This document shows, piece by piece, positions 1,667-64,000 of a DNA stretch of 64,000 bases; the first letter of the stretch is position 1; the number at the start of each line of letters is the position of its first letter. Location of the stretch: the NCBI RefSeq assembly GCF_988243305.1, contig NZ_OZ547136.1; one strand, written 5' to 3'. Position numbers and translations under genes: made by a program. The notes under the pieces are model-generated. The model did no database searches, was not told where the DNA came from, and was given only the letters and a program-made list of their open reading frames with translations.

Positions 1667-2917
1667 CTACGCTAAACCAATAAAGAACCCGGCAATGGTG
1701 GCACTCATCAGATTAGAAAGTGTCGCCGCCGCCAGCGCGCGTAAACCAAGCTGGGCGATTTCCGGCGCACGGTGTGGCGCAACCGCAGAAAACGCCCCCA
1801 CCACCACCCCGATAGAACCAAAGTTAGCGAAACCGCACAACGCGAAAGAAATAATCGCCACGGTTTTAGCATCCAGAGTGCCAGCTGTTTGCAGATAAGG
1901 TGAGAAATTGAGGTAAGCGACAAATTCATTAATCGCCAGTTTCTGTCCAATCAAACTCCCGGCAAGATTCGCATCACTCCAGTCAACCCCCATCACCCAC
2001 GCCAGCGGGGCCAGCAGGTAACCTAAAATGGACTCCAGCGAGGCATGTTCAAAACCAAACCAGCCGCCAACGCCGCCGATAATACCGTTAATTAACGCAA
2101 TGATGGCGACAAATGCCATCACTACTGTCGCCACACCTGCGGCGATTTTCAGCCCGGTCATTGCCCCTGTAGCGGCGGCTTCAATAATGCTTTTTGGCGG
2201 TGTTTCGGTGAAAGAGAGGTTATTAAAGGAAACCTGCGAAGATTCGGTAGCCGGGCTTAACAGGCGGGCAAACAAGATCCCGCCAGGGATCGCCATTAAC
2301 GATGCCGCCAGCAGATATTCCACAGGCACGCCCAGTGCAGCGTAACCAATCATTGTCGAACCAGCAATCGAGGCCATGCCACTACAAATCGCTGTAAATA
2401 ATTCATTGCGATTCAGCCGATCGATAAAGGGTTTGACGATTGCCGGAATTTCGTTTTGCCCGAGGAAAATGGTAGTGACCGCGACGAATGACTCGATCTT
2501 GCTGATATTTAATGCTTTCTGGAAGATACCGCCGAGAATGCGAATTAAGATCCCCATCACACCGATGTAGTAGAGAATACTCACCAGTGCTGTAACGAAG
2601 ATAATTGCCGGTAATACCCTGAAACCAAAGATAAATCCTGCGCCATCAAATAAGGTATCCATTTTCGGTCCGACCAGAGAACCAAAGATAAATGCGCTAC
2701 CTGCATCGCTGTACGCCATCACTTTATGCACGCCAAAAGCGACTTTTTCTGCGACCCAACGCCCTGGTGGTAACCAAAGCATAATGCCGCCAATCACGAC
2801 CTGTAACACTAACGCCGCGCCAACGGTACGCAGGCTGATCTTCTTCTTGTTTACTGACAGCAAAAACGCAATTGCCAGTAATACCACCATTCCCAGAACA
2901 CTTCTCATGACATCCAT
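1667..2917 (-). CDS. nupX: Nucleoside permease, concentrative nucleoside transporter (CNT) family
   Basis: 416-aa polytopic membrane ORF; close paralog of PsuT at 4855..6105 over the whole length. Confidence 0.9.
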   Translation of the reverse strand: MDVMRSVLGMVVLLAIAFLLSVNKKKISLRTVGAALVLQVVIGGIMLWLPPGRWVAEKVAFGVHKVMAYSDAGSAFIFGSLVGPKMDTLFDGAGFIFGFRVLPAIIFVTALVSILYYIGVMGILIRILGGIFQKALNISKIESFVAVTTIFLGQNEIPAIVKPFIDRLNRNELFTAICSGMASIAGSTMIGYAALGVPVEYLLAASLMAIPGGILFARLLSPATESSQVSFNNLSFTETPPKSIIEAAATGAMTGLKIAAGVATVVMAFVAIIALINGIIGGVGGWFGFEHASLESILGYLLAPLAWVMGVDWSDANLAGSLIGQKLAINEFVAYLNFSPYLQTAGTLDAKTVAIISFALCGFANFGSIGVVVGAFSAVAPHRAPEIAQLGLRALAAATLSNLMSATIAGFFIGLA

Positions 2918-2942
2918 AGTTATTATCTCTTCATGTCATTTT

Positions 2943-2970
2943 GGGCGACGGCTTTCTGCCCATCAGAAAT
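2943..2970 (-). other. Conserved 28-nt leader element, copy 1 (rihB-nupX gap)
   Basis: 27/28 identical to 6172..6199; on the minus-strand RNA it can form a 5-bp stem GAYGG/CCGTC with loop GCAGAAAG. Confidence 0.4.
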
Positions 2971-3016
2971 AGCCGGGCCTGCATCTTGCGATACTGTCCC
3001 GGCTTGTTATCAACAC

Positions 3017-3958
3017 TTAATGGGTTTTGATGTAGCCGCGCACGCACTCTTCGACTAATCCCCAGAACCAGTCGGTATCAATAGTGATGCCGACTTTGGT
3101 ATTGGCGGGCTTGCCAAGAACGCCCAGCTCGTCGCAGACGGTACGCCCATAGCAAGGGCCACTGTTAACGTCCACGTCGACGTACATCTCCTGGGTTTTA
3201 ATGCCATCAGGGTTAATCAGATAACCGATGCAGGTGGCGTCATGCACCGGGCCGCCAGCAAGGCCGTAGTTTTCGAACTGCGTTTTGAGAGTGAAGTTCA
3301 TGATGTCGCTGAACAGCTCTCCGGCGGGGCCGCCTGCCCTTTCCATCCGTGCAATCACGTCCGGGGTGCAAACGGTCTGGTTGGTGAGATCGAGGCCCAT
3401 CATCACTAATGGAACGCCGGAGGTGAACACCACGCGTGCCGCTTCCGGGTCAGCAAAGATGTTGAACTCGGCGGATGGCGTAAAGTTGCCAGTACCGTAA
3501 GCGCCGCCCATCAGCACAATTTCACGGATTTTCGGCAGGATCGCGGGTTGCATACGCATTGCCACCGCGATGTTTGAAAGTGGACCAACCGGCACCAGAG
3601 TGATATCGCCATCGCTTGCCATCAGGGTATCGATGATATATTTCACCGCATGAGTGCTTTCTGCCTGGCGGGTCAGCGGCCCGAATACCGGGCCATCAAG
3701 TCCGGTTTCACCGTGAATATTATCGGCAACGATTTGTTGACGCATAATGGGCTGTGGCATCCCCGCATAAACCGGAACATTAATCTCCAGTTTCTGGCAA
3801 ACATTCAGGCCATTAATTAATGTTTTATCGAGGGTTTGATTACCCGCTACAATGGTGATACCTAATAAATCTATTGCCGGATGTTTCGCTGCCATCATTA
3901 TTGCAATAGCATCATCATGACCCGGATCACAATCCAGGATAATTTTTCTTTTTTCCAT
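3017..3958 (-). CDS. rihB: Ribonucleoside hydrolase (pyrimidine-specific)
   Basis: 313-aa ORF with N-terminal DCDPGHDD nucleoside hydrolase signature. Confidence 0.9.
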
Positions 3959-12633: not shown

Positions 12634-13815
12634 ATGCATAACTCCCCCGCAGTCTCCAGCGCGAAATCGTTTGACCTGACCTCGACGGCGTTTTTAATCG
12701 TTGCTTTTCTCACCGGTATTGCGGGCGCTCTGCAAACCCCGACACTCAGTATTTTTCTTACTGATGAAGTACATGCCCGCCCGGCGATGGTGGGATTCTT
12801 CTTTACCGGCAGCGCTGTCATTGGGATTCTGGTAAGTCAGTTTCTCGCCGGGCGCTCTGATAAGCGCGGCGATCGCAAATCGCTGATTGTCTTTTGCTGC
12901 CTGTTAGGCGTGCTGGCCTGCACTCTTTTTGCCTGGAATCGCAACTACTTTGTTTTGCTATTCGTTGGCGTCTTTCTTAGCAGCTTTGGCTCGACTGCTA
13001 ACCCGCAAATGTTTGCCCTCGCCCGTGAACATGCTGACAAAACCGGACGTGAAGCGGTGATGTTCAGCTCTTTTTTACGCGCTCAGGTTTCACTGGCATG
13101 GGTCATTGGCCCGCCGCTGGCTTATGCCTTAGCGATGGGTTTCAGCTTTACGGTAATGTATCTGAGCGCAGCGGTAGCGTTTATTGTTTGCGGCGTGATG
13201 GTGTGGCTGTTTTTACCGTCGATGCAAAAAGAACTTCCACTGGCGACCGGCACGGTTGAAGCGCCGCGCCGTAACCGTCGCGATACGCTGCTGCTGTTTG
13301 TCATTTGTACATTGATGTGGGGCTCGAACAGCCTGTACATCATCAACATGCCGCTATTTATTATCAACGAACTGCATCTTCCCGAGAAACTGGCCGGTGT
13401 GATGATGGGGACCGCCGCCGGGCTGGAAATCCCGACCATGTTGATTGCCGGATATTTCGCCAAACGTCTGGGTAAGCGTTTCTTAATGCGCGTTGCTGCC
13501 GTGGGTGGCGTCTGTTTTTACGCAGGAATGCTGATGGCGCATTCACCTGTCATTCTGTTGGGCTTGCAGCTGCTAAATGCTATTTTTATTGGCATTCTGG
13601 GTGGCATCGGGATGCTCTATTTTCAGGATTTGATGCCCGGTCAGGCAGGTTCAGCCACCACGCTCTATACCAACACTTCGCGCGTGGGCTGGATCATCGC
13701 AGGATCAGTGGCGGGCATCGTCGCCGAGATCTGGAATTATCACGCTGTGTTCTGGTTTGCGATGGTGATGATTATCGCCACTCTGTTTTGCTTACTACGG
13801 ATTAAAGATGTTTAA
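12634..13815 (+). CDS. setB: Sugar efflux transporter (MFS, SET family)
   Basis: 393-aa polytopic membrane ORF matching SetB. Confidence 0.9.
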
Positions 13816-59790: not shown

Positions 59791-59938
59791 GAACTTTTTA
59801 AGATTATTGTGGAATGGCGAAATAAGCACCTAACATCAAGCAATAATAATTCAAGGTTAAAATCAATAACTTATTCTTAAGTATTTGACAGCACTGAATG
59901 TCAAAACAAAACCTTCACTCGCAACTAGAATAACTCCC

Positions 59939-60031
59939 GCTATCATCATTAACTTTATTTATTACCGTCATTCATTTCTGAATGTCTGTTTACCCCTATT
60001 TCAACCGGATGCCTCGCATCCGGTTTTTTTT
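59939..60031 (+). ncRNA. micF: MicF small regulatory RNA (antisense regulator of ompF)
   Basis: GCTATCATCATTAACTTTATTTATTACCGTCATTCATTTCTGAATGTCTGTTTACCCCTATTTCAACCGGATGCCTCGCATCCGGTTTTTTTT, divergent from ompC, ending in its own terminator hairpin and T run. Confidence 0.9.
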
Positions 60032-60342
60032 ACCCTTCTTTACACACTTTTCATTATTCTGTGCTACCACAGAAAAACTATAACGCTTGTTAACTATTTC
60101 ACAAATAATTAACATCAGCATAATTTCCAGCAATCTTCGTTTATTTGCAATTAATTTCTTTGGGCTTTTTGTAGGTTATTTGTACAGCAAAATGGCGCTT
60201 GTACATCTATTTCCCCCAATGCAGGATGATAAATATCACGGGAGAATAGAGAATCATCAATCAGGTAAGAGTCTGGAATTTCACACTGTACCCTTTATAC
60301 TGCCCTATCACTTCGCGAAGTTTTAACAGGTCATAAACACGA

Positions 60343-63015
60343 ATGCGTCAGAAAGAGACAACGGCCACGACCCGCTTTTCACTCCTACCGGGGAGCATTA
60401 CCCGCTTCTTTTTACTGTTGATCATTGTGTTACTGGTGACGATGGGGGTAATGGTACAAAGCGCCGTTAACGCCTGGCTGAAAGATAAAAGTTACCAGAT
60501 TGTCGACATTACCCACGCTATCCAAAAGCGCGTCGATACCTGGCGTTACGTGACCTGGCAGATCTACGACAACATTGCCGCGACGACCTCCCCCTCCTCC
60601 GGCGAAGGTTTACAAGAGACGCGCCTGAAACAGGATGTCTACTATCTGGAAAAACCACGCCGCAAAACGGAAGCGTTAATCTTTGGCTCTCACGACAACT
60701 CAACGCTTGAGATGACTCAACGGATGTCCACCTATCTGGACACATTGTGGGGCGCAGAAAATGTACCGTGGTCGATGTATTACCTGAATGGTCAGGATAA
60801 CAGTCTGGTGCTGATCTCAACCCTGCCCCTCAAAGATCTCACCTCCGGATTTAAAGAATCGACCGTCAGCGACATTGTTGATTCACGTCGTGCAGAGATG
60901 TTGCAACAGGCCAACGCCCTCGATGAACGCGAAAGCTTTTCTAACATGCGCCGCCTGGCCTGGCAGAACGGTCATTACTTTACCTTGCGTACCACCTTTA
61001 ACCAGCCGGGACATCTGGCAACGGTTGTGGCTTTTGATCTGCCGATTAATGATTTGATCCCACCGGGTATGCCGCTGGACAGTTTCCGCCTTGAGCCAGA
61101 CGCGACGGCAACGGGAAACAATGATAATGAGAAAGAAGGGACGGATAGCGTCAGTATCCACTTTAACAGTACGAAGATTGAAATCTCCTCGGCACTCAAC
61201 TCTACCGATATGCGCCTGGTCTGGCAGGTTCCTTATGGCACCTTATTGCTGGATACGTTGCAAAACATTCTGCTGCCACTGCTGCTGAATATCGGTTTGC
61301 TGGCGCTGGCGTTATTTGGCTATACCACATTCCGCCATTTCTCCAGCCGCAGTACAGAAAACGTCCCCAGCTCGGCGGTCAATAATGAATTGCGCATTTT
61401 ACGGGCAATCAATGAAGAGATAGTCTCACTGCTGCCGCTTGGCCTGCTGGTTCACGATCAGGAATCGAACCGCACTGTCATAAGTAACAAAATTGCCGAT
61501 CATTTGCTGCCGCATTTGAATCTGCAAAACATCACCACCATGGCGGAACAGCATCAGGGGATTATTCAGGCGACGATCAATAACGAGCTGTATGAGATCC
61601 GCATGTTCCGCAGCCAGGTCGCGCCGCGCACACAAATTTTCATTATTCGCGATCAGGATCGCGAAGTGCTGGTAAACAAGAAACTCAAGCAGGCGCAGCG
61701 TCTGTATGAGAAAAACCAGCAGGGGCGGATGACCTTTATGAAAAACATTGGCGATGCGCTGAAAGAACCTGCACAGTCCCTGGCGGAGAGCGCGGCTAAA
61801 CTCAACGCCCCGGAAAGCAAACAACTGGCGAATCAGGCAGATGTGCTGGTGCGGCTGGTCGATGAAATACAGTTAGCGAACATGCTTGCGGACGATAGCT
61901 GGAAAAGTGAGACGGTGCTGTTCTCTGTGCAGGATTTAATTGATGAAGTTGTGCCTTCAGTGTTGCCTGCCATCAAGCGTAAAGGTCTGCAACTGCTGAT
62001 TAACAATCATCTGAAAGCACACGATATGCGCCGCGGCGATCGCGATGCCTTACGACGTATTTTGCTGCTACTGATGCAATATGCCGTGACCTCAACGCAA
62101 TTGGGAAAAATCACCCTTGAGGTTGATCAGGATGAGTCCTCCGAAGACCGCCTGACGTTCCGCATTCTGGACACCGGAGAAGGCGTAAGCATTCATGAAA
62201 TGGATAATTTGCACTTCCCGTTTATCAACCAGACCCAAAACGATCGCTATGGCAAGGCGGACCCGCTGGCATTCTGGCTGAGCGATCAACTGGCGCGTAA
62301 ACTGGGCGGTCATTTAAACATCAAAACGCGGGATGGGCTTGGTACACGCTACTCTGTGCATATCAAAATGCTCGCAGCTGACCCGGAAGTTGAAGAGGAA
62401 GAAGAGCGTTTACTGGATGATGTCTGCGTAATGGTGGATGTTACTTCGGCAGAAATTCGGAATATTGTCACTCGCCAGTTAGAAAATTGGGGTGCAACCT
62501 GTATCACACCCGATGAAAGATTAATTAGTCAAGATTATGATATCTTTTTAACGGATAATCCGTCTAATCTTACTGCCTCTGGCTTGCTTTTAAGCGATGA
62601 TGAGTCTGGCGTACGGGAAATTGGGCCTGGTCAATTGTGCGTCAACTTCAATATGAGCAACGCTATGCAGGAAGCGGTCTTACAATTAATTGAAGTGCAA
62701 CTGGCGCAGGAAGAGGTGACAGAATCGCCTCTGGGCGGAGATGAAAATGCGCAACTCCATGCCAGCGGCTATTATGCGCTCTTTGTAGACACAGTACCGG
62801 ATGATGTTAAGAGGCTGTATACTGAAGCAGCAACCAGTGACTTTGCTGCGTTAGCCCAAACGGCTCATCGTCTTAAAGGCGTATTTGCCATGCTAAATCT
62901 GGTACCCGGCAAGCAGTTATGTGAAACGCTGGAACATCTGATTCGTGAGAAGGATGTTCCAGGAATAGAAAAATACATCAGCGACATTGACAGTTATGTC
63001 AAGAGCTTGCTGTAG
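60343..63015 (+). CDS. rcsD: Rcs phosphorelay phosphotransfer protein RcsD
   Basis: 890-aa ORF with N-terminal TM/periplasmic region and C-terminal HPt domain; immediately upstream of rcsB. Confidence 0.9.
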   Translation: MRQKETTATTRFSLLPGSITRFFLLLIIVLLVTMGVMVQSAVNAWLKDKSYQIVDITHAIQKRVDTWRYVTWQIYDNIAATTSPSSGEGLQETRLKQDVYYLEKPRRKTEALIFGSHDNSTLEMTQRMSTYLDTLWGAENVPWSMYYLNGQDNSLVLISTLPLKDLTSGFKESTVSDIVDSRRAEMLQQANALDERESFSNMRRLAWQNGHYFTLRTTFNQPGHLATVVAFDLPINDLIPPGMPLDSFRLEPDATATGNNDNEKEGTDSVSIHFNSTKIEISSALNSTDMRLVWQVPYGTLLLDTLQNILLPLLLNIGLLALALFGYTTFRHFSSRSTENVPSSAVNNELRILRAINEEIVSLLPLGLLVHDQESNRTVISNKIADHLLPHLNLQNITTMAEQHQGIIQATINNELYEIRMFRSQVAPRTQIFIIRDQDREVLVNKKLKQAQRLYEKNQQGRMTFMKNIGDALKEPAQSLAESAAKLNAPESKQLANQADVLVRLVDEIQLANMLADDSWKSETVLFSVQDLIDEVVPSVLPAIKRKGLQLLINNHLKAHDMRRGDRDALRRILLLLMQYAVTSTQLGKITLEVDQDESSEDRLTFRILDTGEGVSIHEMDNLHFPFINQTQNDRYGKADPLAFWLSDQLARKLGGHLNIKTRDGLGTRYSVHIKMLAADPEVEEEEERLLDDVCVMVDVTSAEIRNIVTRQLENWGATCITPDERLISQDYDIFLTDNPSNLTASGLLLSDDESGVREIGPGQLCVNFNMSNAMQEAVLQLIEVQLAQEEVTESPLGGDENAQLHASGYYALFVDTVPDDVKRLYTEAATSDFAALAQTAHRLKGVFAMLNLVPGKQLCETLEHLIREKDVPGIEKYISDIDSYVKSLL

Positions 63016-63685: not shown

Positions 63686-63848
<163 letters not shown>

Positions 63849-64000
63849 CTACGATTCCCGCGATTTCCTGACCCTCTCGGCATATACCGTCAGCGTCTGT
63901 TTTATCACATCCAGCGTTACCGGCTTCGACAGGCAGCTGTCCATACCGGACTCCAGACACCGCTGCTTCTCTTCAGCCAACGCATTAGCAGTTACTCCGA
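63849..64000 (-). CDS. rcsC: Rcs sensor kinase RcsC, 3' end only (gene continues beyond window)
   Basis: Hand translation of the minus strand gives ...GVTANALAEEKQRCLESGMDSCLSKPVTLDVIKQTLTVYAERVRKSRES-stop (stop at 63849..63851). Not in the ORF track because no start codon lies inside the window. Confidence 0.8.
   Translation of the reverse strand, partial: GVTANALAEEKQRCLESGMDSCLSKPVTLDVIKQTLTVYAERVRKSRES

Follow-up and report, generated by a model that had tools for sequence, protein, structure and literature searches.

An inverted repeat of TGTACA upstream of rcsDB as a probable operator, possibly for an MlrA/BluR-type regulator

The repeat pair in the micF-rcsD spacer

How rcsDB transcription is controlled is poorly mapped; RcsB (by autorepression), an upstream element that depends on SirA/UvrY, and H-NS are the inputs known. 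The question raised by this locus is whether two copies of TTGTACA in front of rcsD are a chance repeat in AT-rich DNA or a site through which a regulator controls rcsDB. The ompC-micF-rcsD-rcsB region of E. coli forms the end of the 64-kb stretch of DNA analysed here (the window). On its upstream side the gap is bounded by the micF sRNA gene (59938-60031, + strand; Rfam RF00033 MicF, 116.8 bits), with the micF terminator stem at 60003-60025, and on its downstream side by the rcsD coding sequence (60343-63015, + strand), an 890-aa ORF annotated as rcsD in E. coli genomes and, as the first gene of rcsDB, presumed to be the gene under control. An 801-bp stretch around the repeat pair has matches in 5376 of 5426 complete E. 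coli genomes, whose annotations place it between ompC and rcsD; these genomes and the Rfam match back the gene names given in a preliminary description of this DNA. The same description placed the pair in an AT-rich gap after the micF terminator, and the 311 bp between the micF 3′ end and rcsD do have a GC content of 35.7%, compared to 51.4% for the window. This arrangement is general, as micF lies 5′ of rcsD in each of the 77 loci with enough upstream sequence, with a micF-rcsD spacer of 300 to 448 bp among genera. Within Escherichia, the intergenic DNA is far more diverged than the genes on either side. On the other side of the operon, a match to naRNA4, a REP-derived nucleoid-associated RNA, was found 3′ of rcsB (63773-63849, - strand; Rfam, 64.3 bits).

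The two TTGTACA copies occupy 60180-60186 and 60199-60205 on the + strand, so that their starts are 19 bp apart, as originally reported. Relative to the rcsD ATG (60343) they are at -163 and -144, in agreement with the earlier estimate of about 140-160 nt. The element had been called a palindromic heptamer, which holds for the inner hexamer TGTACA and not for TTGTACA itself. Within this single genome, the repeat pair is unremarkable and not beyond chance: TTGTACA occurs 8 times in the window compared to 6.2 expected, and 7-mer direct repeats that do not overlap and lie within 30 bp number 215 in the window, 8 of them with an internal 6-bp palindrome. The exact pattern TGTACA-N13-TGTACA occurs once in the window. 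Two other pairs of TGTACA in the window (13306/13334 and 54888/54930) were considered, and neither has the N13 geometry without mismatches. A repeat of TGTACAT with 28 bp between the starts (13306-13340) lies within a 393-aa ORF (12634-13815) and looks like chance. The pair upstream of rcsD stands above chance because its hexamers are conserved across genera, and not because of within-genome statistics.

Conservation and symmetry of the two hexamers

Conservation across the Enterobacteriaceae was assessed in 80 rcsD loci, with one genome per species, and the alignment comprised 78 micF-rcsD spacers of this family. Of the 78 spacers, 68 (about 20 genera) match the two hexamers at 10 or more of the 12 positions, and 45 match at all 12. 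In the 68 dyad-bearing sequences, the hexamers are separated by 13 nt in 64 and by 12 nt in 4, so that both hexamers recur at an essentially fixed spacing, which was the check proposed when the pair was first described. The 19-bp distance between starts is found in Escherichia, Enterobacter, Lelliottia, Leclercia, Kluyvera and Raoultella, and also in Trabulsiella, Buttiauxella, Cedecea, Kosakonia, Phytobacter and others. In the alignment (n = 78), islands of high identity (0.83-0.95) are formed by 60177-60186, by 60200-60205 and by T60208, while the 13 columns between the islands have an identity of 0.06-0.38 and are nearly gap-free. A conservation-contrast score for a 6+13+6 layout peaks at exactly 60181 across the whole spacer, and 0 of 20000 random column draws reached this peak. 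The sample is not a set of near-copies, as all 78 sequences differ from each other in the 35-nt segment that carries the dyad; even within Escherichia, most positions between the hexamers differ and the hexamers are intact.

Information content was calculated with one sequence per genus label (25 labels), the labels serving as approximate units of independence. The left arm, A-T-T-TGTACA (60178-60186), scores 1.76 bits for A60178 and 1.76-2.0 bits for TGTAC (60181-60185); its column identity in the 78-sequence alignment is 0.86-0.95. The 13-nt spacer (60187-60199) has 0.01-0.57 bits, which means that its length is fixed and its sequence is unconstrained. The right arm, TGTACA-N2-T (60200-60208), has 2.0 bits at GTAC, 1.76 bits at the final A and 1.60 bits at T60208. 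GTAC is invariant (2.0 bits) in both arms among the 25 genus labels. The T preceding the second hexamer, which completes the second heptamer, is weakly conserved (0.57 bits). In contrast, 24 of 25 labels have an A at -3 of the left hexamer, and 23 of 25 have a T at +3 of the right one. Since the A at -3 mirrors the T at +3, the conserved unit is an inverted repeat, A-N2-TGTACA-N13-TGTACA-N2-T (60178-60208). The direct-repeat register was tried and rejected, as the flanks match solely in the inverted register. The direct repeat of the heptamer that was originally described is therefore present in E. coli, but the element that is conserved is an inverted repeat of TGTACA, and comparison of the sequences indicates that the heptamer repeat is a by-product visible in E. 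coli.

The dyad is anchored to the upstream side of the spacer. Its distance to the micF 3′ end is a steady 148-163 nt in all genera, whereas among genera it is found between -143 and -289 relative to the rcsD ATG; because the former is constant while the latter varies, the length insertions are placed 3′ of the dyad. The extra spacer DNA of other genera falls in the interval that corresponds to 60209-60295 of the window.

Not every lineage retains the dyad. Pseudocitrobacter, Pluralibacter gergoviae, Kosakonia cowanii, Phytobacter massiliensis, Siccibacter, Franconibacter and Intestinirhabdus have lost it. Decayed forms read TGTACc...TGTACg in Salmonella diarizonae and TGTACc/t...TGTACA in most Citrobacter. 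From the alignment, these losses appear as several independent events against a conserved background. Taken together, two constrained palindromic hexamers with mirrored flanks around an unconstrained spacer of fixed length make up a conservation pattern that, as judged from sequence comparison, is typical of a protein operator, and the dyad is very probably one.

Position relative to the rcsDB promoters

In Salmonella, rcsDB transcription starts have been mapped 157 and 36 nt 5′ of the ATG (PMC7241856). The counterpart of the distal start in the window is 60177 (+ strand), a placement made through the alignment of S. enterica subsp. diarizonae and not of the Typhimurium strain used in that paper. 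In S. diarizonae, -157 falls 5 nt 5′ of the decayed left hexamer and behind a good TTGATA-16-TATAAG promoter. The first description had allowed that the repeats might turn out to be unconserved or to lie outside the mapped rcsDB promoter; instead, they are conserved and sit at the mapped distal start of Salmonella. Transcription start site (TSS) profiling of E. coli K-12 lists a single rcsD TSS with a 36-nt leader, and the distal start is absent from that profiling (PMC3415461 supplement). No rcsD entry was found in the Klebsiella TSS supplement. The proximal promoter (60296-60307, + strand) has its -10 element, TATACT, at 60296-60301 and its TSS at 60307 (-36), the same -36 start as in Salmonella.

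The dyad spans approximately +1 to +30 of the distal promoter, and in E. coli its centre is about 114 bp 5′ of the proximal start. The proximal promoter is found at distances from the dyad that differ by more than 120 bp among genera, and the upstream conserved blocks are at a constant distance from the dyad. Because the proximal distance varies while the upstream-block distance stays constant, we infer that the dyad would act on the distal promoter. In a weighted promoter scan of the genera, no external promoter had a consistent position, and none consistently overlapped the dyad.

Three further conserved blocks were noted in the spacer. The SirA dependence of Salmonella rcsDB has been localised to -270 to -220, and RcsB was described as a negative regulator there (PMC7241856). 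By position, a conserved island at 60060-60096 (TGTGCTACC ... AAAnnATAACGnnTnTTAAnnA) corresponds to this SirA(UvrY) element. A second block (60132-60157), about 25-45 bp 5′ of the dyad, has the cross-genus consensus aatttcTTgTTatTt.gtGctAttt, from which E. coli is unusually diverged; it may be the distal -35 region or the site of another regulator. The third (60266-60278) is a strongly conserved GTAAGAGTCTGGAA a short way 5′ of the proximal -10, and this block may be the proximal -35 region and/or a site of RcsB autoregulation.

Candidate binding proteins and other explanations

The preliminary description had proposed that the pair could seat a dimeric regulator, and a multimeric one is supported, within the reach of sequence analysis, by conservation, specificity, position and the SELEX result given below. 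Which protein would bind was approached by comparison with known TGTACA sites. The MlrA box of csgD, defined by a 2010 footprint, is AAAGTTGTACA-N12-TGCACAATTTT as quoted in passages of PMC3509220 and PMC9662190, and on the K-12 sequence it reads TGTACA-N12-TGCACA. In the csgD boxes of five genera, for which loci were fetched for Salmonella, Trabulsiella, Enterobacter and Cedecea, the hexamers are conserved, the spacer is unconserved and 12 nt long, and an A at -3 and a T at +3 are present in all five. The csgD box and the rcsD dyad therefore share two inverted TGTACA-type hexamers, the A at -3 and T at +3 within A/T-rich outer flanks, and a long unconstrained spacer of fixed length with the same cross-genus signature. 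In E. coli each is located about 100-140 bp 5′ of a start site, and each is part of the curli/Rcs network. They differ in that the spacer of the rcsD dyad is 13 nt (12 nt in 4 of 68) compared to 12 nt in all five csgD boxes, in that both rcsD hexamers are perfect whereas one csgD hexamer is TGTGCA, TATGCA or TATACA, and in that the distance of the rcsD dyad to its proximal promoter varies by more than 120 bp among genera. Because it lacks the 12-nt spacer, one of the features that define an MlrA box, the dyad is better said to work like such a box than to be one. An MlrA/BluR-type protein is nevertheless favored because the architecture of the dyad resembles that of the csgD box.

BluR (YcgE), the paralogue of MlrA, is 49% identical to it, and the N-terminal DNA-binding regions of the two are near-identical. 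The BluR footprint at ycgZ, TGTACA-N7-cGTACA, overlaps the -35 and the promoter spacer. The ycgZ operator and the rcsD dyad have GTACA/TGTACA half-sites in common, but the starts of the half-sites are about 13 bp apart at ycgZ (N7) and 19 bp apart at rcsD (N13), the flanks are unlike those of the dyad, and no consistent promoter overlaps the rcsD dyad in the way that the -35 and spacer overlap the ycgZ site. A BluR site at rcsD would suit the logic of the pathway, since BluR controls ymgA/ymgB and YmgA/YmgB activate Rcs.

A related element was observed in the bluR promoter itself. At approximately 1,214,115-1,214,140 of K-12 NC_000913.3 (2116-2141 of the fetched locus), there is a perfect inverted repeat, ATACTTTGTACA-N14-TGTACAAAGTAT, which contains a perfect TGTACA-N14-TGTACA. 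The published bluR TSS is 54 nt 5′ of the start codon, which puts the end of the second hexamer 2 nt ahead of +1 and the first hexamer within the promoter spacer. Operators are typically found at such a position, and the element may serve BluR autoregulation or an input from MlrA/RcdA. No mention of this dyad was found in the accessible part of PMC3509220.

The distribution of the regulators was also considered. MlrA orthologues are named in dyad-bearing Raoultella, Buttiauxella, Lelliottia, Kosakonia, Enterobacter and Citrobacter, and also in taxa in which the dyad is decayed (Salmonella, Metakosakonia massiliensis and Franconibacter). Since MlrA occurs with and without the dyad, the distribution does not discriminate, and an argument from co-occurrence was dropped, as both MlrA and CsgD are named in dyad-bearing and in dyad-less taxa.

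In the explanation that we prefer, a multimeric TGTACA-reading protein would fill both arms, whose centres are 19 bp apart. This protein would most likely be a MerR-family regulator of the MlrA/BluR type, and the TetR-family protein RcdA may occupy this DNA too, in the way it does at csgD and ycgZ. Occupancy would affect the distal promoter; the simplest mode would be a block to initiation or escape, so that the dyad would presumably be a repressor site, and the levels of RcsD and RcsB would thereby be tuned in step with the curli, c-di-GMP and blue-light network. As a whole, this explanation of the dyad as an inverted-repeat operator in rcsDB control, with an MlrA/BluR-type binder and possible sharing by RcdA, has in our estimate about an even chance of being correct. 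The assignment of the binder to the MlrA/BluR family, taken by itself, is tentative and falls a little short of even. The dyad probably ties the regulators of biofilm (curli) to the expression of the Rcs envelope-stress system. A bolder and unlikely extension is that the dyad is a direct and ancient input of the MlrA family into rcsDB: MlrA, a c-di-GMP-controlled activator of curli, or BluR, its blue-light paralogue, would repress distal rcsDB while Rcs represses csgD, which would form a transcriptional mutual-inhibition switch between matrix and envelope-stress/capsule programs. Such a switch would be conserved in the Enterobacteriaceae, seven or more lineages, Salmonella among them, having independently lost it or let it decay, and the 13-nt instead of 12-nt spacer would turn an activating MlrA site into a repressing one.

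One alternative is that the dyad is a nucleation site for RcdA alone, which would spread cooperatively from TGTACA-containing boxes with no involvement of MerR-type proteins. RcdA is the sole protein with experimental evidence for this spacer: in vitro, by genomic SELEX-chip, micF > < rcsD is among the 20 peaks of Table 2 of PMC3535384, at a resolution of about 200-300 bp, that is, at the level of the spacer. The same SELEX list also includes csgD-csgB and ycgF-ycgZ, where the MlrA and BluR sites lie. The strongest target of RcdA (YbjK), its own operator TTGTGTACAttTGTACACAA, carries two TGTACA, and the published box is TTGTnnACA / TTGTnTACA (PMC3535384). In the RcdA spacers that we examined, TGTACA is enriched approximately 10-fold (5 in 2.47 kb compared to 0.19 per kb) and occurs in 4 of 6 spacers other than micF-rcsD, in which the dyad is the only TGTACA-containing sequence. 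However, two RcdA SELEX spacers have no TGTACA, and TTGTnnACA has no exact match in the 311-bp spacer, where its one-mismatch matches (60036 and 60087) are outside the dyad. The dyad and TTGTGTACAttTGTACACAA have the TGTACA core in common, but the hexamers of the RcdA operator are 2 nt apart instead of 13, and its flanking bases are reversed relative to those of the dyad, with a T at -3 and an A at +3. In addition, since RcdA is described as coating DNA cooperatively, a 13-nt spacing that is strictly fixed across genera would be unexpected. Taken together, RcdA acting alone is an unlikely explanation. As for the origin of TTGTGTACAttTGTACACAA, the text of PMC3535384 assigns it to the tfaX-appY spacer, whereas the K-12 sequence places it in the ybjJ-rcdA spacer (3384-3403 of the fetched locus), in agreement with Figure 1 legend of that paper; the K-12 tfaX-appY spacer (3062-3681 of its fetched locus) contains no TGTACA at all.

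It is also conceivable that the dyad is the operator of a different regulator that recognises a pair of TGTACA palindromes separated by two helical turns, for example a tetramer with two dimeric DNA-binding heads. Conservation proves constraint and not the identity of the binder, and the N13 spacing exactly fits none of the three known TGTACA sites. Each hexamer is palindromic in its own right, and several genera have a longer palindrome such as ATTGTACAAT or TTTTTGTACAAAAA, but the inner hexamer flanks are uninformative overall. Moreover, no candidate protein emerged, and to our knowledge the motifs of OmpR, PhoP, RcsB, UvrY and other regulators show no resemblance to TGTACA-N13-TGTACA. The known TGTACA readers are already in the same regulatory network as Rcs, and we consider a different regulator rather improbable.

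The remaining explanations dispense with a regulator. The two blocks could be the -35 and -10 of a sigma-70 promoter, TTGTAC-N16-TACAnT, as promoters too have two conserved blocks around a fixed unconserved spacer and as the best promoter-like match in several genera has a -10-like TACAAT, TACATT or TACACT here. Against this, the critical T at -7 (60207) is unconserved (T in 10 of 25 labels) and it is the next base, 60208, that is conserved (23 of 25). The G and C of both hexamers are invariant, which neither a -35 nor a -10 requires, and the same palindrome is present in both blocks. No TSS has been reported about 7 nt downstream in E. coli or Salmonella, and a generic promoter scan had no match on the + strand at the dyad. 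A sigma-70 promoter at this position is thus very improbable. No more credible is a conserved RNA structure, with the hexamers paired as a hairpin within the 5′ leader that the distal rcsDB promoter would produce. The dyad is just 3′ of the Salmonella distal TSS, and the E. coli sequence folds with -7.9 kcal/mol (z = -2.1); yet compensatory changes were found in 0 of 6 pairs, 18 alignment cells break the pairing, and no measure rose above shuffled sequences. Uncompensated substitutions occur in Salmonella, Citrobacter and Leclercia, and the stem does not include the two conserved flanking bases (A at -3, T at +3). Since the identical sequence is kept in every genus, sequence-specific recognition is favored over pairing. 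A functionless chance repeat in AT-rich DNA, for which the abundance of 7-mer repeats and the near-expected count of the heptamer in the window speak, is effectively refuted by hexamers that are kept in about 20 genera next to randomised bases.

Before this analysis, the spacer was represented by the RcdA SELEX entry, and a literature search found neither a defined site nor an effect of MlrA, BluR or RcdA described at rcsD. What is added here, on the basis of sequence, is a defined predicted operator of the TGTACA-dyad type in the curli/Rcs network. A two-hexamer operator is a precise mutable target in the control region of rcsDB, and the hexamers allow one to ask whether MlrA, BluR and RcdA act directly on the level of the Rcs phosphorelay and not solely by way of YmgA/YmgB and RprA. 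If the preferred explanation is true, the dyad would be the second or third natural site of the MlrA/BluR family, whose DNA recognition rests on very few operators, and the N13 versus N12 difference would offer a natural spacing variant for studying the mechanism of these proteins. The decay of the dyad in Salmonella and other lineages gives a comparative handle on rewiring of the network.

A natural mutant of the dyad site was observed in E. coli strain Z1323CEC0002 (NZ_CP148498.1), in which an IS4-family element of the IS10/ISVsa5 type (2551-3895 of the fetched locus) is inserted exactly at the right hexamer, at the position that corresponds to 60195-60205 of the window. The insertion duplicates about 10 bp (CGCTTGTACA) and leaves an intact dyad about 1.3 kb away from the proximal rcsD promoter.
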